NCBI GenBank assembly: GCA_028278955.1
Contig: JAPYOC010000073.1
Coordinates: 1-53,800, forward strand
Direction of reading: 5' to 3'
Origin: Candidatus Poriferisocius aerobius
GTDB taxonomy: Bacteria; Actinomycetota; Acidimicrobiia; Acidimicrobiales; Bin134
DNA: 53,800 nucleotides
Below the pieces are notes generated by a model. It saw nothing but the letters and a program-made list of their open reading frames with translations. It did not search any database and was not told where the DNA came from. How positions within the stretch are numbered: position 1 is the stretch's first letter; every line of letters begins with the position of its first letter. A program made the translations under genes and the position numbers. Shown here one piece after another: positions 9,832 to 50,117 of this stretch.

Positions 9832-10773
9832 CTACGAACGGGGTCCGGCCAACGCCAGGCCGCGTTCGTCCAGCTTCTCGTTCACCTCGTCCAATGACTT
9901 CTGGCCGAAGTTGGTGATGGCCAGCAGTTCGTCCTCGGTGCGGGCTAGCAGCTCGCCGATGATGTTGATCTGGGCTCGCTTGAGGCAGTTGCGGGGCCGC
10001 TCAGACAAGTCGAGGTCTTCGATGGGCAGATCGAGTTCGGGGGATCCGGCCGGAGCGCTGCCCGCTTCGGCCATGCTCAGGCCTTGGGGTTGGTCGCTCA
10101 TCTCCTCGACCAGTTGAACCAGGGTGCGCAAGGTGGCGCCGGCCGAGGCCAGCGCATCTTGGGGGGTGATGGACCGGTCGGTTTCGATGTCGAGCACGAG
10201 ACGGTCGAACTCCGTGGACTGCTCCACCCGGGTGGGCTCCACGTCGTAGGCCACCCGGCGCACCGGGGAGAAGATGGAGTCAATAGGGATCACGCCGATG
10301 GTGGAGTCCAGCCGGTTGGCGTCGGCTGCGACGTAGCCCCGGCCCTGGGCGATGGTGATGTCCATCGCCAGGCGGGCCTTGTCGTTCAAGCGGGCGATGA
10401 CCAAGTCGGGGTTCAACACCTCAATGTCGGGGTTCACCGCCAGGCTGGCCCCGGTGAGTTCGCCCGGACCCCGGTGGTCGATGCGAAGCTCGACCGGCTC
10501 GGTGCTGTGGCACCGCAACACCAGATCCTTCAGGTTCAAGATGATGTCGGTCACGTCCTCGGCCACGCCGCGGATGGTGTCGAACTCGTGGAGGGCGTCG
10601 TCGAAGCGGGCCCGGATCACCGCGGCGCCGGGAATCGACGACAGCAGGGCCCGGCGCAGAGAGTTGCCGAGCGTGTGTCCGAAGCCCGGCTCCAGCGGTC
10701 CAATGGCGAATTTCTGGCGGTTGTCTTCGAGCTCGGTAACCGACTCGACAGTGGGTCGTTGCATTACCAGCAT
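9832..10773 (-). CDS. rpoA: DNA-directed RNA polymerase subunit alpha
   Basis: 313 aa with the motif GPLEPGFGHTLGNSLRRALLSSIPGAAV. Confidence 0.95.
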   Translation of the reverse strand: MLVMQRPTVESVTELEDNRQKFAIGPLEPGFGHTLGNSLRRALLSSIPGAAVIRARFDDALHEFDTIRGVAEDVTDIILNLKDLVLRCHSTEPVELRIDHRGPGELTGASLAVNPDIEVLNPDLVIARLNDKARLAMDITIAQGRGYVAADANRLDSTIGVIPIDSIFSPVRRVAYDVEPTRVEQSTEFDRLVLDIETDRSITPQDALASAGATLRTLVQLVEEMSDQPQGLSMAEAGSAPAGSPELDLPIEDLDLSERPRNCLKRAQINIIGELLARTEDELLAITNFGQKSLDEVNEKLDERGLALAGPRS

Positions 10774-10853
10774 GTTCCGGCTCCCTCGGTTCTTGGAATG
10801 GTGATGGTCAACTTGGTCGAAAGCTCTTTATGAGCAGGCGAGAGGCAGCAGGC

Positions 10854-11471
10854 CTACTTGCTGTAGAGCTCGACGATGAGCTGTTCTCTAACTGGCACAT
10901 CGATCTGCTCCCGCACCGGCACGTCTCGCACGGTGGCCTCGAAGCCGTCATCGGCTCGCCCCAACCAGGCCGGCGGTGTTCGATCTAAGACATCGAGGTT
11001 CCACCCCACCACGATCATTTCACGGGCCTTGTCCCGCAGGGCCACGACGTCTCCCTTGCGCAGCCGATAGCTGGGAATGTTCACCCGGCTCCCGTTCACG
11101 TTGAGATGGCCGTGGGAGACGAGTTGGCGGGCCTGGGGCCGGGTGGCCCCCCACCCGAGGCGGTAAACCACGTTGTCGAGCCGCAACTCCAAGAAGCGCA
11201 GCATGTTCTCGCCGGTGACCCCCTTGTGGCGGGCCGCCTCTTTGAAGATATTGCCGAACTGGCGCTCGTTGAGCCCGTAGGTATAGCGGGCCTTCTGCTT
11301 CTCCTGAAGCTGGAGCAGGTACTCTGAGACATTGCCTCGCCGCCGCGACCGGCCGTGCTCGCCGGGGGGATAGGGCCGGCGTTCCAAGGCGACGGTCTCT
11401 CCCTTGGTGCCCCAAACGTTCACCCCGAGGCGCCGGGAAACCCGCGATCGCGGACCGGTATAGCGGGACAT
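10854..11471 (-). CDS. rpsD: 30S ribosomal protein S4
   Basis: An internal ATG of ORF 10854..11609 gives MSRYTGPRSRVSRRLG... The start lies 1 nt after the rpsK stop. Confidence 0.93.
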   Translation of the reverse strand: MSRYTGPRSRVSRRLGVNVWGTKGETVALERRPYPPGEHGRSRRRGNVSEYLLQLQEKQKARYTYGLNERQFGNIFKEAARHKGVTGENMLRFLELRLDNVVYRLGWGATRPQARQLVSHGHLNVNGSRVNIPSYRLRKGDVVALRDKAREMIVVGWNLDVLDRTPPAWLGRADDGFEATVRDVPVREQIDVPVREQLIVELYSK

Positions 11472-19965: not shown

Positions 19966-20868
19966 TCAGTCTCCATCGCCCGGCCGGAAGTGCGGTGTCT
20001 GGCGGTGCTCGCGAGTCGAGCGGAGGATGTCCTCCTCCTCTTCAAGCAGCTTCTCGAATTCTGGGTCGGCTTCTTTGATTAGGGGGGCGGGCTCTTCGGT
20101 CTCGTCGGCACGTTCAATCTCGCCTTGTCGCCTTGGCGCCGCCGACGATACCACCGCCCGGGGCTTTTGGGTCCCGGAAGCCTCGCCTACGGCCATAGCC
20201 GCCTCCCGGCTGATCTTGTCCTCGGCCTGGGTCTTGTAGGGCAAGATGTCGCCCTTGTAGATCCACACCTTCACCCCGATGCGGCCGTAAGTGGTGTGGG
20301 CTTCCCTGAACCCGTAGTCGATGTCGGCCCGAAGGGTGTGAAGAGGAACCCGGCCCTCGCGGTACCATTCGGTGCGGGCCATCTCGGAGCCGCCCAAACG
20401 GCCCGAGCACTGCACCCGGATGCCAAGGGCGCCGGCTTTCTGAGCGTTTTGCACCGCTCGCTTCATCGCCCGGCGGAAGGCCACTCGATTGGCGAGCTGG
20501 TCGGCGACGCCTTGGGAGATGAGAGCCGCGTCTAGTTCGGGCTGCTTGATCTCTTGGATATTGAGCTGTACCCGGTTGTTGCCGGTTATCTTGGCCAAGC
20601 CGTTGCGGAGCCGGTCGGCTTCGCTGCCCCGCCGCCCGATGACGATGCCGGGCCGAGCGGTGTGGACATCCACCCGGAGCCGATCTCGAGTGCGCTCGAT
20701 CTCGATCCGGCTGATGGCGGCATGGGGCAGCTCCGACATCAGGTAGTCGCGCACTTTCCAGTCCTCGATGATGAAGTCGCCGTATTCCCGCCGGTTGGCG
20801 AACCAGCGCGACTTCCAGTCGGTGGTGATCCCGAGCCGGAACCCGTAAGGATTGATCTTCTGGCCCAT
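19966..20868 (-). CDS. rpsC: 30S ribosomal protein S3 (with C-terminal extension)
   Basis: [23 protein letters not shown]; 300 aa. Confidence 0.95.
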
Positions 20869-21572
20869 CAGGCTTCCTTCTCTTTTTCCTCTTTTTCAAG
20901 CTCTTCTTCATGGCTGTCGCTGCCGTGCCGATCCGCGATCTCGTCGGCTTCATGGCCGTCGCGGCTGTCTTGATCGTCGGCCTCGTCGTTTTCAGCCTCT
21001 GTAGCCCCAGCCTGCTCTGAGGTTTCTTCCCCGTCGCTGCTGGGCGTGGGCTCTTGGTTTTCTGTTTCTTCTGCCGGTTCTTCTGTCGGGACCGCATCGC
21101 GCTCCCGGCTGGCGGCTACTCGCCGCCGCCGAGCTTCGGCGGCAGAGCTGCGCCGACCGGTGCCCTTGAGGGCCAGTCGAGCCTCGATGGCGGTGAGTTC
21201 GTCGTCGGTGTAGCGGGCGACCACCACGGTGATATGGCAGGTCCGCTTGCGGATGCGCGTGGCCCGGCCTCGGGCCCGGGGCCGCCAGCGCTTCAGCGTG
21301 GGGCCCTCGTCGGCGTAGCAGGCGGCCACAAACAGCTCATCGCCGTCGAGCTCGTCATTGTGCTCGGCGTTGGCCACCGCCGAGTCGAGGCATTTGGCGA
21401 TCGTGTTGGAGATGCGCCGCTCTGAGAATTGGAGAATCTCCCGGGCCTCGGTATACGACTTCCCTCGAACCAAATCGAGCACTTCGCGAGCCTTGAAGGC
21501 TGACGAGCGCACATACTTGGCCACCGCTCGGTTTCCCGGCCTGGCCTCGCGGCCCACGGTGACGGCCGCCAT
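20868..21572 (-). CDS. rplV: 50S ribosomal protein L22 with a long acidic C-terminal tail
   Basis: An internal ATG gives [39 protein letters not shown]... The L22 core is followed by a ~110-aa tail rich in D and E. Confidence 0.9.
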
Positions 21573-21850
21573 CAGCGACGGGCTCCCCGCTCTTGGCCGG
21601 CATGTGACCGGAATGTGCGAGTGGGGGCGAATTCGCCCAGCTTGTGGCCCACCATCGATTCGGTGATGTACACCGGCACATGCTTGCGCCCGTCGTGGAC
21701 TGCAATGGTATGGCCCACCATGTCGGGGATGATGGTGGAGCGGCGGGACCATGTCCTGATGACTTGCTTGGTGTTCTGGTCGTTGAGCGCATCAACCTTG
21801 CGCAGCAGATGGCCGTCCACGAACGGTCCCTTCTTCAAGCTCCTGGGCAT
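21572..21850 (-). CDS. rpsS: 30S ribosomal protein S19
   Basis: [29 protein letters not shown]. Confidence 0.95.
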
Positions 21851-21861
21851 CTCGGCTCCCC

Positions 21862-22698
21862 CTAGCGACGCCCGCCGCGGGTGCGGCGCCGTCGGACGAT
21901 CATCTGCTGTGACTTCTTCTTCTTGTTTCGGGTGCGGCCCTCGGGCTTGCCCCACGGCGACACCGGGTGGCGCCCGCCCGACGATTTGCCCTCGCCACCG
22001 CCCAAGGGGTGGTCTACTGGATTCATGGCCACGCCCCGGGTCTGCGGCCGCACGCCCTTCCAGCGGGCTCGACCGGCCTTGCCCAGCTTGATGAGCTCGG
22101 CTTCGGCGTTGCCCACCGACCCCACCGTGGCCCGGCAGTCGATAGGCACTCGGCGCATCTCGGTGCTGGGCAGCCGTACAGTGGCGAAGCCTCCCTCTTT
22201 GGCCACCAGCTGGGCGCTGGCACCCGCCGAGCGGGCCATGCGGGCCCCGCCGCCGGGCTTCAACTCCACGGCATGCACCGTCGTGCCCACCGGGATGTAG
22301 CGCAGGGGCAGGGCATTGCCCGGCCTGATCTCCGCGCCGGGCCCGTTTTGCAGAACATCGCCCACGCCGACGCCTTCGGGCGCCAGGATGTAGCGCTTCT
22401 CTCCGTCGTGGAAGTGCAACAGCAGGATGCGGCAGTTGCGATTGGGGTCGTATTCCACCGATGCCACCGTGGCCGGGATGCCGTCTTTGACCCGCTTGAA
22501 GTCAACGAGGCGGTAGCGCTGCTTGTGCCCGCCGCCCCGATGGCGAGCGGTCCGGCGGCCATGGTTATTGCGTCCGCCGGTGCCGGTTTTCTTGGCTACC
22601 AGCGTCCGCTCCGGCTTTGCGGCGGTGATGCCGGAGAAGTCCGACACCGTTTGGAAGCGCTGGCCGGGGCTGGTCGGATTTCGTCTACGCACTGCCAT
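21862..22698 (-). CDS. rplB: 50S ribosomal protein L2
   Basis: Internal ATG at 22698. Motifs: [29 protein letters not shown]. Confidence 0.95.
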
Positions 22699-22739
22699 GG
22701 TGTGCCTCGCAAGTGGAATACGGCCGGTAGCGGCGGCGC

Positions 22740-23030
22740 TCAGACATCGAACAGCTCGATCTCGTCGCCTTGGGCCAGCGTGACCAACGCCCGCTTGGTG
22801 TCCGGTTTGCGGCCGTAGGAGGGGCTGCGCCGGTTGCGGCGGCGCTTGCCCTTGCGGTTCATGGTGTTGACCTTGAGGACGGTCACATCGAACAACGACT
22901 CGATAGCGTCCCTGATCTCCGGCTTGGAGGCGCGGGGATGAACGTGGAAGGTGTAGACGTTGGCCTCCAAAAGCTCGTAAGACTTCTCGGAGACCACCGG
23001 GGAGAGCACGATGTCGCGGGGATCCTTCAC
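22740..23030 (-). CDS. rplW: 50S ribosomal protein L23
   Basis: The GTG start at 23030 overlaps the rplD stop. The protein reads [18 protein letters not shown]. Confidence 0.9.
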
Positions 23031-23716
23031 GAGTCGTCCCCTTCGCCGCCGGATTCTGGCTCGGCTGGTGCGGTGGAGGGCAGAGTGTCGAGGGTGAACA
23101 CCACCACATCGGACGTCAACACGTCGTAGGCGTTCAGCTCCCCGGGGCTGATGAGATGCACCTCGGAAAGGTTGCCGAAGCTCTTCCACACGTTCTGCTC
23201 GTTGCGTGGCGCCACCAGCAGCACCCGTCCTTTGGCCGGCAAAGCGGCGAGCGCGGCGACTGCGTCCTTGGTGCGGGGGGACTCGAATCGCCAGCGGTCC
23301 ACCACCACCACCTTGCCGTCTCGAGCCCGGTCGGACAGCGCCGATCGAAGGGCCAGGCGGACCATCTTCTTGGGGGTTCTCTGGCGGTAGCTCCGAGGCT
23401 TGGGACCCAGCGCCACGCCCCCTCCCCGCCATTGCGGATTCCGGGTAGAGCCGTGGCGGGCCCGGCCGGTGCCCTTCTGGCGCCACGGCTTTCCGGCCCC
23501 GCCTCTGACCTCGGCTCTGGTCTTGGTGCTCTGGGTTCCCCGCCGTCGGGCGGCAAGCTGGGCAGTGACCACTTGGTGCATGGCGAACACATTGGGCTCG
23601 ATGCCGAACACCTCGGGATCCAAGTCCACTGATCCGGTCTCTGTCCCGGAGGGGTCGCGCACGGTCACGGTATGCATCTGCCGGGCCGGCGCCGCGTCGA
23701 CGGGGAGGGCAGTCAT
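23027..23716 (-). CDS. rplD: 50S ribosomal protein L4
   Basis: [26 protein letters not shown] motif. The ATG at 23716 overlaps the rplC stop. Confidence 0.92.
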
Positions 23717-24363
23717 GGTCGCCCCGCCCCGTTCTTCACTGCGCTGCGGATCAGCACGGTTGCCCCTCGGCGACCGGGAACCGAGCCCTTGAGCAGGATC
23801 AAATCGTTCTCGACGTCCACCCTCACCACCTGGAGGTTCAGCGTGGTGACCTTCTCGGCCCCAGCCCGGCCTGGCATCTTCTTGCCCCGGAAAATCCTCG
23901 AAGGGGTGGCGCACTGGCCCACGGCGCCGGGTTTGCGATGCACCTTGTGGGCACCGTGGCTGGCTTTTTGACCGCTGAAGTTGTGGCGTTTCATGGTCCC
24001 GGAGAAGCCCTTGCCCTTGCTGACGCCGGTCACGTCCACCCGCTCGCCACCGTCGAACACGTCGGCGCCGATCTCCTGGCCGGTTTCATAGGCGCCCACA
24101 TCGTCGATGCGCAGTTCCACCAACTTGCGGCCGGGGGCGACGCCGGCCTTGTCCAAATGGCCCTGCTCCGGCTGGGTCAGCCGATCGGCGCTCTGGGTTC
24201 CGTAAGTCACCTGAAGGGCGGAATAGCCGTCGGTCTCCGGCCGTTTGACCTGCACAATGCGGCAGGGTTCCACTCGCAGCACGGTCACCGGCACGACGCG
24301 GTCGTCCTCGTCCCACACCTGGGTCATTCCTATCTTTTCGCCGACAATCGCCTTGGCAACCAT
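23713..24363 (-). CDS. rplC: 50S ribosomal protein L3
   Basis: GEKIGMTQVWDEDDRVVPVTV; 216 aa. Confidence 0.95.
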   Translation of the reverse strand: MVAKAIVGEKIGMTQVWDEDDRVVPVTVLRVEPCRIVQVKRPETDGYSALQVTYGTQSADRLTQPEQGHLDKAGVAPGRKLVELRIDDVGAYETGQEIGADVFDGGERVDVTGVSKGKGFSGTMKRHNFSGQKASHGAHKVHRKPGAVGQCATPSRIFRGKKMPGRAGAEKVTTLNLQVVRVDVENDLILLKGSVPGRRGATVLIRSAVKNGAGRP

Positions 24364-24640
24364 CGCGACCCTGCCTTCACGCGAAAGCTCCGCACGGACT
24401 CAGCCCCAGCAAGTGGGCCCGGCCGGCGGAGCGGGCTTCGGTTGTGCCGTCCGGTTCCCGCAGCAGGTTTGCTACTCCCTGCGGGCCTAGACAGACATCG
24501 CTTGACACGAACCGTGCCAGCGGGTGCCGACACGAAGGACGAACAGTAGCGACCGCTCGAGCAATAGCCAAATCCCCGAACGGGCAAAAGGCAAAGATTA
24601 CCGTGAAATCGTGGACGGTGTTTCGTCCGAGGAGGCACCA

Positions 24641-25789
24641 GTGGGGCCGTCACCATCCCAGAAGGTCCCGCCTTGGCTGTTTCGCGCCATCCTGGCCGGT
24701 GCGGCCGCTCTGGGCGGGCTGTACGTCGTGGGATGGCTGATCCGAGAGCTGAGGCCGCTCTTGGTGATCGTGCTGGTGTCGTTCTTCCTGTCTTTCGCGC
24801 TGGAGCCTGCGGTGAACCGCATGGAACAGATGGGCGTTCGCCGGGGCGTGGGCACCGGGCTCGTGTTCTTAGCGCTGCTGGCGGCAGTGGGGCTGTTCCT
24901 GTGGGCCATCGGCACGGTGCTGGCCGATCAGGTGGGCGAGTTTGCCGACGATGCCCCCGGCTACATCAACGATGTCGAGGATTGGGTGGAGGACGCTTTC
25001 GGCATTGAGGTCGACGCTCAAGGGCTGCTAGATGAGTTCCAGGAGGGTGGGGCCGTCGCCAACTTGGCCACCAGACTGGCCGAGAATCTCATCAACCTCG
25101 GTGCCACCGTGCTGCAAGTGCTGTTCCAGATTCTGACCATCGCACTGTTCACCTTCTATCTTGTGGCTGAAGGGCCGAAGCTGCGCCGCAACGTCTGCTC
25201 GTTGCTGTCGCCCGAGCATCAGCGCCAAGTGTTGAGCATTTGGAACCTGGCGATAGACAAGACCGGGGGTTACATCTACAGCCGGTTGATCCTGGCGACG
25301 GCCTCGTTCTTGGTCCACTGGCTGGTTTTCTGGCTGGTCGATGCGCCGTTCCCGGTGCCGATGGCGATGTGGGTGGGCTTGGTGTCGCAGTTCGTACCGG
25401 TGATCGGCACCTACATCGCCGGGGCGTTGCCTGTGCTGATCGGGCTGCTAGATGAGCCGTCGACCGGATTGGCCATCCTGATCTCCATTGTGGTCTATCA
25501 GCAGGTGGAGAACTACCTGCTCCAGCCCAAGGTGACCGCTCACACCATGGAGATCCACGTAACGGTGGCGTTCGGATCAGTGATTGCCGGCAGTCTGCTG
25601 TTGGGGCCGGTGGGAGCGGCGCTGGCCCTTCCCGCTGCTGCCACGGTGCAGGCCTTCTTGTCCAGCTACCTCGAACGCCACGAGGTGGTGCAAGAACTCG
25701 AAGACGCCGAGGCCGCCCAGCACCCTGAGCGCGACCCCATAGGCCAGCGGATCCGCCAAGCGGTGCGCCAGACCTTCACCCCCAAGTAA
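24641..25789 (+). CDS. AI-2E family transporter (PerM/YhhT-like permease)
   Basis: Multi-pass membrane protein with a typical UPF0118 C-terminal region (VYQQVENYLLQPKV). The longest ORF starts at GTG 24524. The GTG at 24641 follows GAGGAGG at good spacing and is preferred. Confidence 0.8.
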   Translation: MGPSPSQKVPPWLFRAILAGAAALGGLYVVGWLIRELRPLLVIVLVSFFLSFALEPAVNRMEQMGVRRGVGTGLVFLALLAAVGLFLWAIGTVLADQVGEFADDAPGYINDVEDWVEDAFGIEVDAQGLLDEFQEGGAVANLATRLAENLINLGATVLQVLFQILTIALFTFYLVAEGPKLRRNVCSLLSPEHQRQVLSIWNLAIDKTGGYIYSRLILATASFLVHWLVFWLVDAPFPVPMAMWVGLVSQFVPVIGTYIAGALPVLIGLLDEPSTGLAILISIVVYQQVENYLLQPKVTAHTMEIHVTVAFGSVIAGSLLLGPVGAALALPAAATVQAFLSSYLERHEVVQELEDAEAAQHPERDPIGQRIRQAVRQTFTPK

Positions 25790-25801
25790 GCAGCGAGGCA
25801 C

Positions 25802-25827
25802 CGTCAGGAGCAGGCGGCGAGGGCGGC
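25802..25827. repeat. left copy of a perfect 26-bp direct repeat (cgtcaggagcaggcggcgagggcggc)
   Basis: Identical to 28168..28193. It lies 13 bp after the permease stop and is a duplicate of the tpx 3' end, including the stop codon. Confidence 0.85.
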
Positions 25828-25842
25828 CACCAGCTCCAAGGG

Positions 25843-26928
25843 CTATAGCCGAATGGCAGGAGCAGGAGCGTCGACTATCCAGTTGTTGGGTTGAGTTGAT
25901 TCGCAGCGAAAGGTGACGCGTCCCGGGTCGACTGACAACCGCTCGAATCGACGAGTTGCCTCTTTGATCGTCTGAGTGACAGCACGTGGCCGTCGTCTTG
26001 GACGAGCAGTGGCGTTGTCGCGAGTGAGCCAAGCCTGTGATGTCAGACCGGCGATTCGAGCGCGGTCGCTGTCTCTGGGGAGATCTGCGTTTCCCTGTTT
26101 GAAGGGTGTGAGTCCAGCGATGGGATAGGGCACGAGAAGGTCATTCCACATGGACTGGTCGTGAGCATCCACGGAGCCATGGTGAGGAATCTTGACGACG
26201 TGAGCCATTTCTGAGGGCCTTCCACTGGAGTTGACGATTGCCCTCCAGCCTCTTGAATCGTCAGATGACCGTTCTAAATCAGCACCAAGTAGGGCGATTG
26301 CCTCCCCTACCCGTATCCAGACCACGACTGATGACGGGTTTCGCTGCGGTCGCGGGACAGCGCGTTTTGGCTGGCCGGGCTCTGCGATGAGTGTGCTGAA
26401 GCCAGAAATAGCATCTGCTATTGACGCGCTGCTCGGGGACAAGGTCCATATCTCACAGTCTGGAGCCAAATTCGTCGACCGTTGGTGGATCCTTGAATCA
26501 GCCGAAGCAAGTTGCGGTGCGCCTCGCCCAGAGTCCCTGAGATGAGTCCAAACGGTCCACATCTCTTTGACACCAGATGAACCTTCAATGAAGGAGTCTG
26601 CGTCCAGTGCGGCGAGCATCATGAACTCGTCTTTCTCGAGCGCAGCCGAATGGATCACTCTGGCCGCTGAGCACCCCTCGACCAGTTCGGAGAAGCCGCG
26701 AATATGGTCGTCGTGCCAATGAGTGGCTACGACCCAGTGCACAGCATCTGTGGCCACTCCCAGTGATTCGAGGTATGCGAGCGCTGCGGGGCGGCCAGCT
26801 TGGGTCACACAGGAGTCGATGATGAGCCATTCGCCGCCGCCGACATGCAGTACGCAGCACTCTCCTCGACCAGGACCGAGGAGAGTTATCTCGATCTCAT
26901 CGTCCCTTGGGGGCTGACGAGTCACCAT
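25843..26928 (-). CDS. MBL-fold metallo-hydrolase, ComEC/Rec2-like beta-lactamase domain (candidate nuclease)
   Basis: Motifs THWHDDH (HxHxDH) and KIPHHGS. The ATG at 26928 overlaps the upstream stop (ATGGTGA). The longest ORF starts at 26991. Confidence 0.75.
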   Translation of the reverse strand: MVTRQPPRDDEIEITLLGPGRGECCVLHVGGGEWLIIDSCVTQAGRPAALAYLESLGVATDAVHWVVATHWHDDHIRGFSELVEGCSAARVIHSAALEKDEFMMLAALDADSFIEGSSGVKEMWTVWTHLRDSGRGAPQLASADSRIHQRSTNLAPDCEIWTLSPSSASIADAISGFSTLIAEPGQPKRAVPRPQRNPSSVVVWIRVGEAIALLGADLERSSDDSRGWRAIVNSSGRPSEMAHVVKIPHHGSVDAHDQSMWNDLLVPYPIAGLTPFKQGNADLPRDSDRARIAGLTSQAWLTRDNATARPRRRPRAVTQTIKEATRRFERLSVDPGRVTFRCESTQPNNWIVDAPAPAIRL

Positions 26929-27467
26929 CCGAAACGGATTCGAAGCTCCTCGGCGCGGTCGGCGGCTCTTCGAAGATCCCTGTCGCTCCAAGAAGGCAGT
27001 CGACGGAACACGAGAACGGATGATCGGCTTCGCTCTCCAGAAGGCTCGGTGCGGTAGCCGACGCTCCAGTAGAAGACTGCCCCTGGCGCCACGAGGGCCA
27101 GATCGCCGCGGCTCACTTCCTCAAGATCGAATTCAGCTACTTCTTCGTCTGAGGTTTCTATCAGGTCGAACAGCCGAGCGATGAAAGTTGAGCCCGTCAC
27201 CTCGGAAACCGTTCCTTGCCACTTTTGGAGGACATGAAAGTGCGGCTGGACCTGAGTGTGACTGGGTAGAGCAACAGGTGGAACAACGGGCAGGGGAGAT
27301 CGACCGCGGCTTATGGCATTTATCTGGTCGCCGCCGGGCGCTGTTTCTGATGTCTCTTCGACAAGCATTGACTGGGCTTGTCGCGGGATGCTGTATGCAG
27401 GGGTCGATGCTGCTTCGTGGCATGAACTGCTCTCATGGAGAAGCCTGAGGCTGCAAGTTGCCGTCAT
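26922..27467 (-). CDS. hypothetical protein (181 aa: low-complexity N-terminal half, conserved-looking C-terminal ~100 aa)
   Basis: The ATG at 27467 overlaps the upstream stop (ATGA), and its own stop overlaps the MBL start. I recognise no motif. Confidence 0.5.
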   Translation of the reverse strand: MTATCSLRLLHESSSCHEAASTPAYSIPRQAQSMLVEETSETAPGGDQINAISRGRSPLPVVPPVALPSHTQVQPHFHVLQKWQGTVSEVTGSTFIARLFDLIETSDEEVAEFDLEEVSRGDLALVAPGAVFYWSVGYRTEPSGERSRSSVLVFRRLPSWSDRDLRRAADRAEELRIRFGW

Positions 27468-28123
27468 CTAATCAGACCCTCCACATGTCCAAGTATTTGA
27501 TTTGCACGCTCTGAGATATTTCTCCATTCAACATTCAACAACTTGCCTATAGCCACTGTAGATATTGACATGTTCTCTTGAGATAAACTGAAGTGGTCGT
27601 TAACTTCACAGAGTACATTTTTTCCTCCGTCCAATATCGGTTCAACCTTTACTCGTATATATCCATCATGACCATCGGTTCGCTCACCCTGTTCTTCGAC
27701 CCGTACCATGTCGGGTCTTTGCAGTACCGCAGTCCACTTTTCGGCGGGCACGAGTTCCCGACCTAGCTGGTTGAACTGGTCTTTTGACTCATACTCGAGG
27801 ACTAGATCGTGATTAATACCAAGGGCCCGAGTGGGGATGTGTCTGAGTAAATCGAGTGTGCCAATGAGCAAGTCTCTTGTTGCCTCGTAATGGGATTCCC
27901 GTTTTGAGTGAAGAGCAAGGCGGTCGCGAGTCACTTGCAAACGGAGCCAGTCCAACTGAAATATCGCTACCTCAGAATGGATGATCTCAATCTTGTCGAC
28001 GTCAACTTCCTCATGTCGGATTAAATCTTCTTGGGCAAACCATGAAGGATGAAAGATCGAAGGGTTGAACGCACCGAGGACCACGAGAGAGATCTCGCGC
28101 TGGATTTGCTGTGGCCTAGCCAT
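27464..28123 (-). CDS. hypothetical protein (219 aa), AT-rich foreign gene
   Basis: ATG at 28123 with a GAGGG Shine-Dalgarno sequence 4 nt upstream. It is a clean 219-aa ORF in sequence of ~40% G+C (hand count 38-40% over 27481-27600). I recognise no catalytic motif. Confidence 0.6.
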   Translation of the reverse strand: MARPQQIQREISLVVLGAFNPSIFHPSWFAQEDLIRHEEVDVDKIEIIHSEVAIFQLDWLRLQVTRDRLALHSKRESHYEATRDLLIGTLDLLRHIPTRALGINHDLVLEYESKDQFNQLGRELVPAEKWTAVLQRPDMVRVEEQGERTDGHDGYIRVKVEPILDGGKNVLCEVNDHFSLSQENMSISTVAIGKLLNVEWRNISERANQILGHVEGLIR

Positions 28124-28167
28124 CAGACCCTCAATCTTAGGTCCTTGACTGCCGGTCAGCCAGGGTG

Positions 28168-28193
28168 CGTCAGGAGCAGGCGGCGAGGGCGGC
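28168..28193. repeat. right copy of the perfect 26-bp direct repeat, inside the 3' end of tpx
   Basis: Identical to 25802..25827. On the minus strand it encodes ..AALAACS plus the stop. Confidence 0.85.
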
Positions 28194-28670
28194 GTCGTAG
28201 TCGGGCTCGTCGGCGATGGCGCCCACCAGCTCGGAGTGGGCCACGGTGCCGTCGGGGGCGATGACCACCACGGCTCGGGCGGTGAGACCGGACAGGGGGC
28301 CGTCGACCATCTCTACGCCGTAGTCGCTGAGGAACTCCCGGTTGCGGAAGATGGAGCCGATGGTCACGTTCTCGATCCCCTCCGCGCCGCAGAAGCGGGC
28401 GCCGGCGAAGGGCAGGTCCAACGAGGCGCAGATCACGGTGGTGTTGTCGAGGTTGGCGGCCCGCTCGTTGAAGGCTCGCACGCTGGTGGCGCACACCCCG
28501 GTGTCGATGCTGGGGAAGATGTTGAGTACCACGCTGCGCCCGGCCAAGCCCTCCAGTGTGACGGGGGATAGGTCGCCGCCGGTGAGGGTGAAGGCCGGCG
28601 CGGTCGTTCCCGCCGCGGGCAAATCACCGCTGGTGTTGATGGCTATGTCTTTGAATTTGGTCTGGCCCAT
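28170..28670 (-). CDS. tpx: thiol peroxidase (atypical 2-Cys peroxiredoxin Tpx)
   Basis: An internal ATG of ORF 28170..29039 gives MGQTKFKD..LNIFPSIDTGVCATS..SLDLPFAGARFCGAEG; 166 aa. Confidence 0.9.
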   Translation of the reverse strand: MGQTKFKDIAINTSGDLPAAGTTAPAFTLTGGDLSPVTLEGLAGRSVVLNIFPSIDTGVCATSVRAFNERAANLDNTTVICASLDLPFAGARFCGAEGIENVTIGSIFRNREFLSDYGVEMVDGPLSGLTARAVVVIAPDGTVAHSELVGAIADEPDYDAALAACS

Positions 28671-28704
28671 AGCCGTTTTGTAGCACCCCAGCCGCCGGGA
28701 TTCG

Positions 28705-31700
28705 TTGCCGGGGAAGGCGATTGTGCCGGATTCATCAGAGATGGCCCGCCTTGCGGGGCATTGCGGCCAAGCTGTCACCGCCCGCTCGTACAATCGGGCC
28801 ATGGTTCCTGCTGACCACCGGGACGAGAAGGCGCTGAACGCGGCCATTGCCGCCGCCATCGGTCGGTGCCACCCGCAGTCTGTGGTAGAAGCCGAGCGAG
28901 CCAGCAAGCTGGTCGGCTCAGCCAAGCAGCCCGACATCACCGTGGAAGCTCCCGGCCGTGAGCGAGTGCTGGTAGAGAACAAGTACTCCAACGTCTCGGC
29001 CCGGCACTTGGAGGAGCAGTGCTTGGGCCATTTCGGCACGCAGTGGGCCGCCGATCAGCGCCCAGTCCGGGTGGTAGTGGCCATGAGGAGCCCGGAGCGG
29101 CTGAATGACTTCTCTGATGAGGATCTCGCCGAAGGCGCGTTTACCGAGATCACCTTCCAGTGGGCCATGTGGTCGGTGAACGGCGAGGGTGATCCGGCTC
29201 GGTTCCCCGAATCCGGATGGCTGGAGGGTAGGATCGCCGAACTGGCCGCCTTCATCGACCGGGCGGGGGCCGACGGTGCCGACGCCGGTCCGGCCGCAGA
29301 GCGGCTACAGGCGCAGCTGGCCGCAGCGGCGGGCCAAGCCACCGAGGGGGTGGGCACTGCCGAGGCCTTCGGACTGGTGCTGGCCCAGGAGCCGGGGGAG
29401 CAGACCAACCGCATGGCGATGGCGATCCTGTTCAACGCCGTGCTGTTCCAGTTCCATATTGCCGCGCACCATCCAGAGATACCAACGCCCTCGCAGATGC
29501 TGGCCGACAACAAGCTGGATCAGCTCCATGTGCTCGAAATATGGCAGCAGGTCTTGGAGGTGAACTACTGGCCCATTTTCGGAGTGAGCCGAAGGCTGCT
29601 GCGGGAAATCAACAGTTTCGGGGCTGCCAAGCGATCGTTGGAACTACTGTGCCGCACCGCAGGGGAGATAGCCCACGACCCCAGTTCATCGGGCCTGGTG
29701 GGGCGGCTCCTCGGAGAGTTGATCGGCGACCGCAAATTCTTGGCCACCTTCTACACCCATCCTGCCTCGGCCGCGATGTTGGCCGAGCTGGCGGTGAGTC
29801 GCTTGGATGTGGATTGGTCGGATCCCGAGGCTATTGCCGGGTTGAGGGTGGGCGACATGGCCTGTGGCACCGGGGCGCTGTTGACCGCGGTCTACCGGCG
29901 GATCGTGGAGCGACACCGGGTTGAGGGCGGCGACGATGCCAATATCCATCGGACGCTCATGGAGGAGGTGATGATCGGCTGCGACATCATGGCCGCGGCC
30001 GTGCATCTGACGGCGTCTCGCCTGTCGGGGGAGCGGCCCGACATCGACTACACCGGCACCAAGACCTGGGTGATGCCCTACGGCAAAGTGGCCGATGCCC
30101 GCGGGGTGGTCGGCTACCGGATAGGGGCGCTCGACCTGTTGCACTCCAACACCCGCTATGCCCTCTGGGGTGACGGCACGCTGGCGGCGGCCGCGCAGGG
30201 AGAAGAGGCGCTGGCCTTCGCTGACGTTGCTGCAGAGTCATTGGACATCGCCATCATGAACCCCCCGTTCACCCGGCCGACCAACCATGAGGCCACCCAC
30301 GCCGAAGTGCCCAACCCGGCGTTTGCCGGGCTGGGCAACGACCCGCAAGATCAGAAGGCGATGTCGGAGGCGCTGGTGGCGAGCATCAAGAGCATCAGCG
30401 GCGGCAAGGCCAGTCACGGCAACGCGGGAATCGCCTCCAACTTCATCGACTTGGCCCATGCCAAGCTCAAGCCCGGCGGCGTATTGGCCCTGATCGTGCC
30501 GGCGTCGCTGGTTTCCGGGGCCTCGTGGAGGCCGGCGCGCGGTCTTCTGGCTGCTGGCTATGGAGACATTGAGATCTTCTCCATTTCAGAGCACGGAGAC
30601 GAAGCGTCGCAGGGCCGTGCCTTCTCTGCCGACACCGGGATGGCGGAAGTGATTGTGGTTGCCACAAAGCATGAGCGATCTCCGCGTAGCAGATCGCTGG
30701 AGGCCGATTATGTGGTCTTGGGCAAGCGGCCCGTGTCGGCGCTGGCTGGAGTTGAGATCGCGCAAGCGGTGATGGGCTCAGAGGAACGAGATGCTCTGCT
30801 GTCTCTTGGCGATCAGGTTCATGGACATCGTTCAGCATCGGCATTCACGAAAAACATGTGTGGCCACCCGGTTGGAACTCACAGTTTTGAGGTTGTTGTC
30901 ACCTCTTCAGAGCTTGCAGCCGGAAAGCTGGCATTACCCCGTGGTCGTGCCTTGGATCTTCCAATCAGCGGACTGGCTCAGCTCGGCTACCGAGGGTCGG
31001 TAGACAGAGACATTGCAGGCAAAAACTCAGACGGCACACCACGGGGGCCTTTCGATATCCTCAGGCTCTCAGATAGGCATCAGCACGCCAGCGTTGATTG
31101 GCCAGTGCTCTGGTCACATGACCATAGAGCAGAGATATTGATGAGAGTCCTCCCCTGTTCGAGGGGAGTCTTGCGCCAGAATATGAGAAATCGGGCGCTA
31201 GAGATTTGGGAGGGACGCGACAACCCTGTCGGCGGACAGTGGATTTCAGGCGCAACCCGTCTCCACATCAACAGCGACTTTCGGCTGAACTCTCAGCCCA
31301 CCGCCGCTTGTCTGACCCCCAAGCCTGCCATGGGCGGGCGGGCGTGGCCCTCGTTTCAGCCGACGGCGGACGACGAATCTGAAAATGAGAACTGGGAGAA
31401 GGCAATCTGCGTATGGCTGAACAGCACCCTCGGCCTGCTCGGACGCTGGTGGGTCTCCAGCCGCCAGCAAAAGGGTCGGGCAAACCTCACGATCACCACC
31501 CTGGGGAGCATTCCCGTTCTGGACTTGCAGGCCATCTCAGCTGAACAGGTACGGGAGCTGGCCGCCACCTTCGACGAGTTTGAGCACCGGCCCATGCTGC
31601 CGGCCAACGAGGCCTACCGAGACGAAACCCGCCAGGAACTAGACTGGGCAGTGCTGTGCGGGGTGCTGGGGCTTCCCGAGACCATTCTCGACCCGCTGGC

Positions 31701-31764
31701 AACGCTGAGATTGCAGTGGTGCGCGGAGCCCTCGGTTCATGGCAACAAGAAAACCCGTCCCTGA
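28705..31764 (+). CDS. single-polypeptide restriction-modification-like enzyme: PD-ExK nuclease-like N-terminus, gamma-class N6-adenine DNA methyltransferase and TaqI-like specificity domain (type IIG/IIL-like)
   Basis: QPDITVEAPGRERVLVENKY (D..ExK); FYTHPASAAMLAEL (motif X-like); VGDMACGTGALL (motif I); IMNPPFT (motif IV); VWLNSTLGLLGRWWV..GSIPVLD (TaqI-C-like). The start is uncertain: TTG 28705, GTG 28723 (which has GGAAGG upstream) or ATG 28741. Confidence 0.7.
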   Translation: MPGKAIVPDSSEMARLAGHCGQAVTARSYNRAMVPADHRDEKALNAAIAAAIGRCHPQSVVEAERASKLVGSAKQPDITVEAPGRERVLVENKYSNVSARHLEEQCLGHFGTQWAADQRPVRVVVAMRSPERLNDFSDEDLAEGAFTEITFQWAMWSVNGEGDPARFPESGWLEGRIAELAAFIDRAGADGADAGPAAERLQAQLAAAAGQATEGVGTAEAFGLVLAQEPGEQTNRMAMAILFNAVLFQFHIAAHHPEIPTPSQMLADNKLDQLHVLEIWQQVLEVNYWPIFGVSRRLLREINSFGAAKRSLELLCRTAGEIAHDPSSSGLVGRLLGELIGDRKFLATFYTHPASAAMLAELAVSRLDVDWSDPEAIAGLRVGDMACGTGALLTAVYRRIVERHRVEGGDDANIHRTLMEEVMIGCDIMAAAVHLTASRLSGERPDIDYTGTKTWVMPYGKVADARGVVGYRIGALDLLHSNTRYALWGDGTLAAAAQGEEALAFADVAAESLDIAIMNPPFTRPTNHEATHAEVPNPAFAGLGNDPQDQKAMSEALVASIKSISGGKASHGNAGIASNFIDLAHAKLKPGGVLALIVPASLVSGASWRPARGLLAAGYGDIEIFSISEHGDEASQGRAFSADTGMAEVIVVATKHERSPRSRSLEADYVVLGKRPVSALAGVEIAQAVMGSEERDALLSLGDQVHGHRSASAFTKNMCGHPVGTHSFEVVVTSSELAAGKLALPRGRALDLPISGLAQLGYRGSVDRDIAGKNSDGTPRGPFDILRLSDRHQHASVDWPVLWSHDHRAEILMRVLPCSRGVLRQNMRNRALEIWEGRDNPVGGQWISGATRLHINSDFRLNSQPTAACLTPKPAMGGRAWPSFQPTADDESENENWEKAICVWLNSTLGLLGRWWVSSRQQKGRANLTITTLGSIPVLDLQAISAEQVRELAATFDEFEHRPMLPANEAYRDETRQELDWAVLCGVLGLPETILDPLATLRLQWCAEPSVHGNKKTRP

Positions 31765-31802
31765 CTCTCAGCAGAAGCCGAGCCGTTCAGCCTGGGGCAG
31801 GG

Positions 31803-32969
31803 TCAGATGCCCTCGGCTTCGACTTCCTCGCGGCTGACGCCGAGCAGGAACAGCACTGCGTCCAGGTAGGGGACGCTCACGGCAGTCTCTACGGCTTGGC
31901 GGACCCTGGGCTTGGCGTTGAAAGCGATGCCCAGGCCTGCGGCGGTCAGCATGTCGATGTCGTTGGCCCCGTCGCCCACCGCCACCACCTGCTCGGCTGT
32001 CACCCCCTCGGCGGCGGCCACCTCGTGGAGGATTTCGGCTTTGCGAGCCCGGTCCACCAGTGGGCCTTCCAAGCGGCCGGTGAGCTTGCCGTCGGCCATC
32101 TCCAGGGTGTTGGCGAAGGCGTAGTCGAGGTCGAAATCCTGTTTGAGCCGGTTGCAGAATCGGGTGAAACCTCCGCTCACGATGGCGACGACGTAACCCA
32201 GCCGCTGAAGGGTGGCCAAAAACGTTCGGGCACCGGGGGTCAGGGTCATCTGGTCCCACACCCGCTCCAAGGCGGCTTCGTCCAACCCGGCGAGGAGGCG
32301 AACCCGGTCTCGCAGGGCGGTCTCGAAGTCGATCTCTCCTCGCATGGCCTGCTCGGTCAGCTCTTGGCACACTTCGAAGCATCCTGCCTCGGCGGCCAGC
32401 AGGTCGATCATCTCGTCCTGGATGAGGGTGGAGTCCACGTCGAGCATGGCCACCCGCTTGGTCCGCCGAGCCAGCCCTTCTCGCTGGATGGCCACGTCGA
32501 AGTCGGGGCTGGCGGCGGCCACCGAGAGCAGGTTGCGGCGGATAGCGTCGGCGTCGCCCCCCTCCACCAGCAGCTCGTAGCTGTAAATGGGATAGCGGGA
32601 GAGACGCACGATGCGGTTGATGTTGCCGCCGCCCTCGGCGATGGCGGCGGCGGTGGCGGCCAGCATCGCCGGGGCCAGTTCTCGGCCCAGCACGGTCACG
32701 GCGTGGGCGCCGATGTGAGCGGTGGGAGTGGGATCGACCACGTCGAACTCCACAGCGACTTTCTGCTCCCAGCCGAAAAGGAGCAGGTCTTTGAGCAGAT
32801 CCCGGCCGGGGGGAACCTCCACCACGATGCCCAGCGTGAGCTGGCGGCGGATGACCACCTGCTCGATGTCCTGAATGCGGGCGTCACCGCTGGTGAGCAC
32901 GTCGAGCAGGGCCGCGAACAGCCCGGGACGGTCGGGACCGGAAACCCGGAGCAGGATCACTTTGTCCAT
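31803..32969 (-). CDS. serB: phosphoserine phosphatase with N-terminal tandem ACT domains (SerB2-like)
   Basis: HAD motifs MLDVDSTLIQ and GDGANDIDM; 388 aa. The ~170 N-terminal residues are ACT-like. Confidence 0.88.
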   Translation of the reverse strand: MDKVILLRVSGPDRPGLFAALLDVLTSGDARIQDIEQVVIRRQLTLGIVVEVPPGRDLLKDLLLFGWEQKVAVEFDVVDPTPTAHIGAHAVTVLGRELAPAMLAATAAAIAEGGGNINRIVRLSRYPIYSYELLVEGGDADAIRRNLLSVAAASPDFDVAIQREGLARRTKRVAMLDVDSTLIQDEMIDLLAAEAGCFEVCQELTEQAMRGEIDFETALRDRVRLLAGLDEAALERVWDQMTLTPGARTFLATLQRLGYVVAIVSGGFTRFCNRLKQDFDLDYAFANTLEMADGKLTGRLEGPLVDRARKAEILHEVAAAEGVTAEQVVAVGDGANDIDMLTAAGLGIAFNAKPRVRQAVETAVSVPYLDAVLFLLGVSREEVEAEGI

Positions 32970-33019
32970 GGCGGTGTGGACTCGGCCTGCGGCTTCGGTG
33001 TTGTCGCTCCGGTTCAGCC

Positions 33020-33340
33020 TCAGCCGTGTTGGAGCTTGATCTCTATGTCGACACCTGCGGGCAAGTCCAGCCGCTGAAGGGAGTCCACGGTCTTGGGACC
33101 GGGATCCACGATGTCGAGCAAGCGCTTGTGGATGCGTATCTCGAAATGCTCGCGGCTGTCTTTGTCTTTGTGGGGCGAACGGATGACGGTGAAGCGGTGC
33201 TTCTCGGTGGGCAGCGGGACAGGTCCCCGCAGATCGGCCTGAGTGCGCTTGACCGTCTCCACGATCTTCTTCGTGGACTGGTCGATGATCTCGTGATCGT
33301 AGGCCTTCAGCCGAATGCGGATTTTCTGTCCTGCGGCCAT
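33020..33340 (-). CDS. rpsJ: 30S ribosomal protein S10
   Basis: An internal ATG gives [48 protein letters not shown]; 106 aa. It lies 5 bp after tuf. Confidence 0.95.
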
Positions 33341-33345
33341 GAGAG

Positions 33346-34536
<1,191 letters not shown>

Positions 34537-48977: not shown

Positions 48978-49050
48978 CAGGGCAGGAGGGACTCGAACCC
49001 CCAACCGCCGGTTTTGGAGACCGGTGCTCTACCAATTGAGCCACTGCCCT
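48978..49050 (-). tRNA. tRNA-Trp (anticodon CCA)
   Basis: Hand-folded. Acceptor stem AGGGCAG/CTGCCCT, anticodon loop CUCCAAA, T-loop GGTTCGAGTCC. No encoded CCA. Canonical position upstream of secE. Confidence 0.9.
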
Positions 49051-49926: not shown

Positions 49927-50003
49927 TGGTAGCGGCGGCCAGACTCGAACTGGCGACCTCTCGATTATGAGTCGAGCGCTCTTACCGACTGAGCTACGCC
50001 GCC
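49927..50003 (-). tRNA. tRNA-Met (anticodon CAT, elongator type), CCA encoded
   Basis: The minus strand reads GGCGGCGTAGCTCAGTCGGTAAGAGCG..CTCATAA..GGTCGCCAGTTCGAGTCTGGCCGCCGCTACCA. The anticodon stem has no GGG/CCC run, so it is not an initiator tRNA. Confidence 0.9.
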
Positions 50004-50044: not shown

Positions 50045-50117
50045 AGCCTCCTGAGAGAATCGAACTCTCGACCTTTTCCTTACCATGGAAACGCTCTGCC
50101 GACTGAGCTAAGGAGGC
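50045..50117 (-). tRNA. tRNA-Thr (anticodon GGT)
   Basis: The minus strand reads GCCTCCTTAGCTCAGTCGGCAGAGCGTTTCCATGGTAAGGAAA..GAGAGTTCGATTCTCTCAGGAGGCT. Confidence 0.9.

Follow-up and report, generated by a model that had tools for sequence, protein, structure and literature searches.

Gene order between rpsJ and rplC

The window considered here is a stretch of 53,800 nucleotides (nt) from Candidatus Poriferisocius aerobius (contig JAPYOC010000073.1), in which the genes for ribosomal proteins S10 (rpsJ) and L3 (rplC) are separated by several kilobases of other DNA. Coordinates given without a locus number refer to this window, and genes were placed in it by a listing of open reading frames (ORFs) together with family searches; all lie on the minus strand unless marked plus. 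The rpsJ gene (33020-33340; PF00338 Ribosomal_S10, E 1e-36) starts 5 nt past the stop codon of tuf (33346-34536), a 396-amino-acid (aa) ORF for EF-Tu that precedes it in a str-type unit. The first gene of the S10/spc/alpha block, rplC (23713-24363; PF00297 Ribosomal_L3), lies beyond an interval of 8656 bp (24364-33019, from the rpsJ stop to the rplC start) that includes genes on the opposite strand. The E. coli-type order, with rpsJ first and rplC directly after it, is not found in the window, the two genes being 8.66 kb apart. Comparison with other loci shows that such a split is usual at this point in the class Acidimicrobiia, where it would mark an operon boundary, and is ordinary for the lineage.

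Reading from rpsJ toward rplC, the interval begins with serB (31803-32969; TIGR00338, 241 bits against a cutoff of 144), which encodes an ACT-ACT-HAD phosphoserine phosphatase and starts 50 nt past the rpsJ stop on the same strand. A terminator scan of positions 23500-34000 found no terminator-like site between these two genes and just two weak ones in all, both inside the cassette described below; serB is probably co-transcribed with rpsJ. After serB come a remnant of a citE-like gene for an HpcH/HpaI lyase (31768-31794), consisting of the last 8 codons and the stop, and a restriction-modification-like (RM-like) gene on the plus strand (28741-31764, with the ORF open from 28705) that encodes a fused protein of 1007 aa. 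These are followed by tpx, the gene for thiol peroxidase (28170-28670; NF001808, 220 bits against a cutoff of 123), and by a cassette of three genes, two of which encode proteins of unassigned function (219 aa, 27464-28123; 181 aa, 26922-27467) and the third a metallo-beta-lactamase (MBL)-fold protein (25843-26925; PF00753). The cassette is bracketed by direct repeats of the tpx 3' end, the first copy (28157-28232) being the true end of tpx with its stop codon and the second (25791-25836) a decayed copy at the far end of the cassette. The last gene, on the plus strand and divergent from rplC, encodes an AI-2E family permease (24611-25789, where 24611 is the likely start of an ORF that extends from 24524; PF01594, E 2e-58). 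Upstream of rplC lie a promoter predicted from the sequence (24543-24571) and a structured leader RNA of the rplC operon (24366-24511), the latter matching a covariance model with 80.5 bits (E 6e-22). An initial annotation of the window had already named genes in this region, and every one of its placements was confirmed by the ORFs and family matches.

The boundary in Acidimicrobiia and Actinomycetes

The closest species representative of the window genome is a complete chromosome of Candidatus Poriferisocius sp. (locus L001), to which the window is 100% identical in S10, 97% in EF-Tu and 95% in L3; NCBI taxonomy places the genus in the Ca. Hopanoidivoransaceae, order Acidimicrobiales, class Acidimicrobiia. 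For a broader comparison, the best 80 S10 matches (L001-L080) were taken with 10-kb flanks, and the spacers between tuf, rpsJ and rplC were measured. Among them were 53 Acidimicrobiia-type loci with enough sequence to judge and 26 loci from Actinomycetes. The two ribosomal genes are contiguous in three of the 53 (L003, L018 and L032). Another 17 have a spacer of 189-380 nt with no inserted gene, 20 have the genes 1.4-9.7 kb apart, and 13 have no rplC within the 2-10 kb available. Hence rpsJ lies at least 189 nt from rplC in 50 of the 53 Acidimicrobiia-type loci (about 94%), and 33 of these 50 open loci have kilobases of varied genes, or no rplC nearby, beyond rpsJ. The spacer between tuf and rpsJ, by comparison, is 0-85 nt in the Acidimicrobiia-type loci, with four exceptions. 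In the Actinomycetes, which here include Streptomyces, Micromonospora, Actinomadura and the Nanopelagicaceae, the spacing is the other way about: all 26 loci have rpsJ and rplC 9-47 nt apart, and the distance from tuf to rpsJ is at least 91 nt and often amounts to kilobases. Most simply, tuf, rpsJ and rplC would once have formed a contiguous array, which each class opened at a different junction.

The initial annotation had taken the separation for a genome-specific break of a near-universal adjacency. That view does not survive the comparison, since the boundary is open in about 94% of the class sample and it is the contents of the gap that are lineage-specific. The annotation had also held that an interruption conserved throughout the order, with uniform composition, would speak against such a break; the conservation of the boundary is indeed what was found, while the composition of the DNA that fills it is not uniform.

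Two loci with other arrangements may be described here. In L003 (7875-10971; labelled Ca. Hopanoidivoransaceae, with a locus GC of 0.59), fusA, rpsJ and rplC adjoin one another, and both tuf and the rplC leader are missing from the locus; this state is either a secondary compaction or that of a mislabelled or deeper lineage. In L010, a metagenome-assembled genome (MAG) of the Microthrixaceae, 4.4 kb separate tuf from rpsJ. Right after tuf is a weak and partial leader-like match (27 bits; 5585-5677), and a full leader is also present upstream of rplC.

A leader RNA and a predicted promoter upstream of rplC

Upstream of rplC, a conserved element was seen in every Acidimicrobiia locus inspected, whatever adjoins it further upstream. 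It is about 145 nt long in the window and about 120-145 nt across loci (e.g., L001 14254-14399 and L014 6928-7047), and it consists of three helices with the conserved motifs GACGUC, AGGCC, GGGAACC, GGCACAACCGA and UUCGCGUGA. An alignment of 32 sequences made with MAFFT, and thus independent of any covariance model, contains 20 base pairs, 10 of them with compensatory changes. In this alignment 95% of the cells are paired, as compared to 34-49% with shifted partners, the covariation score is 0.368 as compared to at most 0.078 in shifted controls, and none of 500 shuffles attained the observed values of pairing and covariation. The minimum-energy fold of the window's leader reproduces the helices. 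A covariance model built from this alignment and searched in the window and in L001-L080 gave 38 full-length matches, including six loci outside the seed, each just upstream of rplC on the same strand; neither the Actinomycetes loci nor the three in which rpsJ and rplC are contiguous gave a match.

A pattern search for the leader over 185,579 species genomes returned at least 120 stretches, with 118 new loci among the matches listed, to which the counts that follow also refer. The model matches 101 of these 118 loci with 54-101 bits, almost all of them in MAGs labelled Acidimicrobiia, and 99 of the 101 have rplC directly after the leader, with a median distance of 33 nt. Where rpsJ is also in view (49 pattern-search loci), it lies 59-203 nt from the leader in 18 and 1.2-7.5 kb from it in 31. 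In a second alignment, made from 99 sequences with the covariance model, compensatory changes occur in 12 pairs, pairing extends to 93.5% of the cells and covariation scores 0.365, as compared to at most 0.09 in shifted controls. Altogether the leader is known in at least about 140 loci, with scores of 38-101 bits, and occurs once per genome region. Full-score matches to the same leader also occur in two contigs binned as Verrucomicrobiales (L081, 900-1008) and Acidobacteriota (L167, 2882-2993), which are probably mis-binned or mislabelled.

Searches of Rfam 15 found no leader family at the gathering score in the window and five related loci, or at E <= 10 on the leader strand. At the gathering score, the scan of the whole window returned three tRNAs only; these genes (48978-49050, 49930-50003 and 50045-50117, minus strand) lie upstream of the rpoBC/str region.

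The element combines two things, a conserved location in the 5' untranslated region of a ribosomal-protein operon and a covarying secondary structure. Its most plausible role is that of a ribosomal-protein leader that acts in autoregulation; by analogy with known systems, L4 is the likeliest ligand. The conserved RNA might instead bind no ribosomal protein and act as a riboswitch, an attenuator that senses a small molecule or factor, an RNase processing site or a transcription antitermination element. The distance from its 3' hairpin to the start codon, which ranges from 1 to 135 nt, is contrary to simple occlusion of a ribosome-binding site and lends this alternative some weight. We nevertheless think it unlikely, if still worth keeping in mind, in view of the fact that the element occurs only in front of the rplC-rplD operon, which is the typical signature of ribosomal-protein leaders, and that there are precedents in the L4 leader of E. 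coli (PMC3616713) and in a candidate L4 leader that precedes rplC in Archaeoglobi (PMC7247131).

Descent of the leader from an ancestral rpsJ leader was also considered and was rejected, there being no model match upstream of rpsJ in Actinomycetes and a different conserved hairpin in that position. This hairpin, GCGACACGCCCGACCGCG(G/U)GGGUCGGAGG, is near-invariant in Streptomyces, Micromonospora, Kitasatospora and Paractinoplanes, where it lies about 75-100 nt upstream of rpsJ (L042, L046, L053, L062, L065, L068, L071, L074 and L076-L080). It has no Rfam match in the three loci searched (L042, L053 and L077), nor does the Acidimicrobiia leader model match it, and it may be a separate rpsJ leader.

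The promoter predicted upstream of the window's leader consists of a -35 element TTGGCT (24571-24566), a 17-nt spacer and a -10 element TACTGT (24548-24543). Among 97 distinct loci, TANNNT occurs 7-70 nt upstream of the leader in 89, as compared to 34% of shuffles, and in 58 of the 97 it is preceded by TTG at a distance of 16-19 nt, as compared to 2.5% of shuffles. The initial annotation had argued that the block from rplC through rplQ would need its own promoter and that any control by an S10 leader would be uncoupled from it. Both points are upheld by the sequence comparisons: a conserved predicted promoter and a structured leader stand directly upstream of rplC, as an ancient and conserved feature, and rpsJ, which is 5 nt from tuf, has no leader of its own and would be controlled separately from rplC.

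Variable contents of the junction

The genes that lie between rpsJ and rplC differ greatly from one lineage to another. From 19 filled gaps, 58 ORFs chosen by support from GC content at third codon positions (GC3) fall into about 40 clusters, which are common to near relatives only. A Pfam sample of these genes includes an HtrA-like protease, a 2OG oxygenase, an FAD reductase, a diacylglycerol kinase, an acyltransferase, a carboxylesterase and, in L033, an independent type IIG-like RM gene. The AI-2E permease gene is more widespread: it stands divergent beside rplC in L001, L002, L012, L033 and L200-L203, and at least 17 pattern-search loci (among the matches listed) carry a homologue. L033, an Acidimicrobiales chromosome, has two copies of rpsJ together with the last ~90 nt of tuf (3647-3964 and 10619-10936, 99% nt identity), and these duplicates flank about 6.6 kb that carries the type IIG-like RM gene and a gene for a 946-aa protein; this duplication-flanked insertion has the same pattern as that seen at tpx in the window.

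One could suppose that the gap genes are a selected functional extension of the ribosomal cluster, in which serB, tpx and the permease are co-regulated with the translation genes. Consistent with this, at least five genomes have serB on the same strand as rpsJ and 22-50 nt behind it, no terminator-like site separates the two, and the AI-2E gene is divergent to rplC in several families. On the other hand, the contents of the gap differ among families (protease, oxygenase, esterase, kinase, RM), 17 loci are without any inserted gene, and citE has proved dispensable, having been deleted in both the window and L202. We regard such an extension as improbable.

Stepwise filling in the Poriferisocius lineage

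Near relatives of the window genome show at least five occupancy states between rpsJ and rplC. In L001 and L002 the two genes are about 4.1 kb apart and enclose serB, a citE-like gene, tpx and the AI-2E gene. L203 has the same content plus the RM-like gene between citE and tpx, and L202 has the RM-like gene and no citE. The window and L200 have the RM-like gene, the three-gene cassette and a citE remnant; in L201, citE is intact and is accompanied by two IS3 copies, a DUF7380 gene and the cassette. The serB gene occupies the same position in L001, L002, L202 and L203, and serB, tpx and the AI-2E gene have 80-88% nt identity with their counterparts in relatives (tpx is colinear with L001 and L002 at 81-87%). 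The citE remnant directly follows the serB stop in the window, where it reads QAERLGFC and a stop as compared to RAERLGLC and a stop at the end of L001 citE, and an intact citE of 289 aa stands at this site in L001, L201 and L203. In L201, a sister species, the interval between citE and tpx contains IS3-family elements at 1128-2260 and 5220-6397, one of which splits the RM-like gene into pieces of 589 and 373 aa. These presence/absence states and junction scars bear out the suggestion of the initial annotation that filling of the gap took more than one step, and an origin of the gap from a single island was rejected on the differing occupancy states of the relatives.

The RM-like protein carries a PD-(D/E)xK-like motif and a putative N6-adenine methyltransferase domain, and its C-terminal region is variable. 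In 22 homologs, which are about 1000 aa long and are called hypothetical in their sources, DMACGTG (methyltransferase motif I) and NPPF (motif IV) are invariant, and the PD-(D/E)xK-like KQPD-x13-ENKY is conserved in at least 90%. Its family matches are weak and lie below curated cutoffs (Eco57I, 17 bits as compared to 25.3), as do those to PADLOC MTase_II and IIG (E 1e-9 to 5e-3) and to mad2, which is also weak; its matches in the PDB are marginal (BrxX and TaqI, E 0.009-0.14). All of these matches cover the methyltransferase core only. Family searches and sequence and profile searches of the PDB gave no match to a nuclease family or structure. "RM-like, type IIG-like" is accordingly a fair but unproven label for what its motifs suggest. 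The gene is absent from L001 and L002 and is present at the same site in L200-L203, with 75-78% aa identity in L202 and L203. Its C-terminal third, which is 61% identical to that of L201 as compared to 85% for the N-terminal part, holds a patch of low GC3 that may stem from exchange of a specificity domain.

The cassette occupies 2.4 kb in the window where L001 and L002 have about 36 bp, and its three genes overlap stop-to-start. It is also present in L200 and in L201 (8806-11086), and the trio recurs in unrelated contexts in L205 (3821-6116) and L206 (3690-6080) at 33-65% identity, as a module of ~219-aa and ~180-aa proteins of unassigned function and an MBL-fold protein of ~360 aa, the last of which in the window matches phrog_28593 (E 4e-34). 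This recurrence marks the trio as a self-contained mobile module. A repeat search aligned the two copies of the tpx 3' end over 37 nt at 89% and 22 nt at 91% identity. The duplicate measures 37-46 nt in the window; that of L201 measures 241 nt and covers tpx residues 88-166. Presence or absence at a precise site and flanking direct repeats, both characteristic of islets, are thus found together in the cassette, and the duplication of tpx is what would be expected as the trace of a single-crossover (Campbell-type) integration of circular DNA that carried a tpx fragment. Family scans of the cassette ORFs found no recombinase, integrase or transposase family and only the MBL fold, and in PADLOC and NCBIfam the cassette belongs to no known defence system, with weak matches to MBL components or the motif region only. 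It could represent a mobile or defence-type module that has so far gone undescribed.

Base composition sets the cassette apart. Windowed GC, which averages 0.65 over the window, falls to a trough of 0.47-0.50 at 27250-28000 and shows a lesser dip to 0.55 at 30750-31250. The GC3 of the cassette genes is 0.48-0.58, as compared to 0.79-0.92 in neighbouring genes; that of the RM-like gene is 0.75 overall, close to the host value, apart from its patch of ~500 bp (30757-31260) with 0.53 as compared to about 0.78-0.83. The initial annotation had regarded both modules as foreign in composition, which is correct for the cassette and is not so for the RM-like gene. Its near-host GC3, together with its presence at the same site in related species at 75-78% aa identity, identifies the RM-like gene as an old resident.

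The deviant composition of the cassette, the repeats that flank it and the absence of the RM-like gene from L001 and L002 might be taken to mean that an intact S10 operon was recently disrupted in this one genome by one or more incoming islands, with rplC left to rely on a makeshift promoter. Such an event is very improbable, as the separation, promoter and leader are found across at least about 140 Acidimicrobiia loci, insertion-free ones included, serB, tpx and the AI-2E gene are common to relatives at 80-88% nt identity, and the RM-like gene and the cassette occur in other species at 64-85% aa identity. A chimera formed in assembly at one of the gap's borders, for which the metagenome-type origin of the window's contig might be cited, can be set aside for practical purposes, because both borders are repeated in independent assemblies, several of them complete long-read chromosomes (rpsJ-serB in L001, L002, L202 and L203; AI-2E-leader-rplC in L001, L002 and L200-L203), and because L200, a JGI metagenome contig, is colinear with the window over 20000-31334 at 97.7% identity.

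A probable one-gene shift of the str/S10 boundary

We consider it likely that in the Acidimicrobiia the boundary between the str and S10 operons lies one gene later than in E. coli or the class Actinomycetes, that rplC begins a unit of its own and that the permissive junction between the two was filled stepwise. On this account rpsJ would be the tail gene of an rpsL-rpsG-fusA-tuf unit, and the large ribosomal-protein operon would start at rplC, behind its own sigma-70-type promoter and a structured leader of ~145 nt. Insertions between rpsJ and rplC would break no operon and would have accumulated in many lineages because the site is an inter-operon junction. In the Poriferisocius lineage, the junction would at the outset have held the older content of serB, citE, tpx and the AI-2E gene. 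The fused RM-like gene would then have been inserted between citE and tpx, citE would have been lost in the window genome with a remnant of 27 nt left behind, and the mobile three-gene cassette would have integrated at the 3' end of tpx, duplicating that end; the order of these events is the one that the occupancy states of the relatives suggest.

A number of points weigh against this account. The three loci with contiguous rpsJ and rplC carry Acidimicrobiia labels, and one of them (L003) has the same family label as the window; on their evidence, either polarity of change, with the contiguous state ancestral or derived, remains compatible. The sample consists of the best 80 S10 matches and of pattern matches and is not phylogenetically balanced. 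The 99-sequence alignment was fitted to the covariance model, which favours the structure, and the minimum free energy of the window's leader does not differ significantly from that of shuffles (z = -1.6), so that the support for the structure comes from covariation. A generic sigma-70 scan of positions 23500-34000 found no promoter; its criteria are ill-suited to high-GC actinobacterial promoters, and since it is uninformative for such a genome the comparative analysis of TANNNT and TTG was used instead. Finally, it is from nucleotide sequence that we deduce the promoter, the joint transcription of tuf with rpsJ and serB, and the function of the leader.

The one-gene shift of the boundary and the leader RNA, class-wide and absent from Rfam, are the parts of this account that have some, albeit modest, novelty; literature searches found no description of the rpsJ/rplC arrangement of Acidimicrobiia or of the rplC leader. 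A more far-reaching proposal, which we believe to be about evenly balanced between right and wrong, is that the leader is a class-wide and hitherto undescribed ribosomal-protein leader, probably L4-sensing, that arose together with the shift, and that the shift uncoupled S10 (NusE) from the large operon, tied S10 to EF-Tu and made the site between rpsJ and rplC, throughout the class, a landing site for accessory and defence genes.

Comparison with known arrangements

Archaea always have uS10 apart from uL3-uL4-uL23 (PMC10833476). The arrangement in Acidimicrobiia resembles the archaeal type of str cluster in that S10 is encoded with the genes for S12, S7 and the elongation factors and that the L3-L4-L23 block starts a separate unit; in the window, rpsJ directly follows tuf on the same strand, and rplC is not adjacent to it and heads its own predicted unit. 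The Acidimicrobiia differ in that the two units are not dispersed, but stay neighbours on the same strand with 0.2-10 kb of variable DNA between them. S10 is also placed with str-type genes in cyanobacteria and plastids and in Chlamydia.

The S10 operon of E. coli has an L4-responsive leader and is autoregulated by L4 (PMC3616713). It shares with the Acidimicrobiia a long ribosomal-protein operon with rplC-rplD behind a structured 5' leader. The E. coli leader, which is restricted to Gammaproteobacteria, precedes rpsJ, whereas that of the Acidimicrobiia precedes rplC and leaves rpsJ outside the unit; the two also differ in architecture, and no Rfam model matches the Acidimicrobiia RNA. A closer likeness in position is offered by the candidate L4 leader of Archaeoglobi, which lies upstream of rplC-rplD-rplW-rplB in genomes that encode S10 elsewhere (Eckert and Weinberg 2020, PMC7247131). 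Both are conserved RNAs directly before an rplC operon with S10 separate, but the Archaeoglobi candidate is archaeal and is unrelated in sequence and structure by Rfam search (no match at E <= 10 on the leader strand), and the Acidimicrobiia motif is backed by far more sequences and by stronger covariation.

Multigene insertions between operons are known from the rpoBC-str-S10-spc-alpha supercluster of Proteobacteria (Brandis et al. 2019, PMC6735719). There, as in the Acidimicrobiia, accessory genes are found at operon junctions and the order within operons is kept. The permissive junction of Proteobacteria is that between str and S10, upstream of rpsJ; that of the Acidimicrobiia lies one gene further on, between rpsJ and rplC.

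Implications

As an oddity of a single genome, the gap in the window would be ordinary; its interest comes from the class. The Acidimicrobiia are abundant in soil, freshwater, oceans, activated sludge and sponges, and methods of annotation and synteny analysis should not assume that rpsJ and rplC are adjacent in them. Markers based on the ribosomal-protein block, and binning checks, could misjudge their genomes. The leader is a well-supported candidate RNA family outside Rfam: it has at least about 140 instances, covaries clearly and has a defined genomic role. It comes from the phylum Actinomycetota, where to our knowledge few ribosomal-protein leaders of this kind are known. The arrangement itself gives the archaeal placement of S10 a counterpart in bacteria, and it indicates that the position of an operon boundary decides where a conserved supercluster tolerates insertions.

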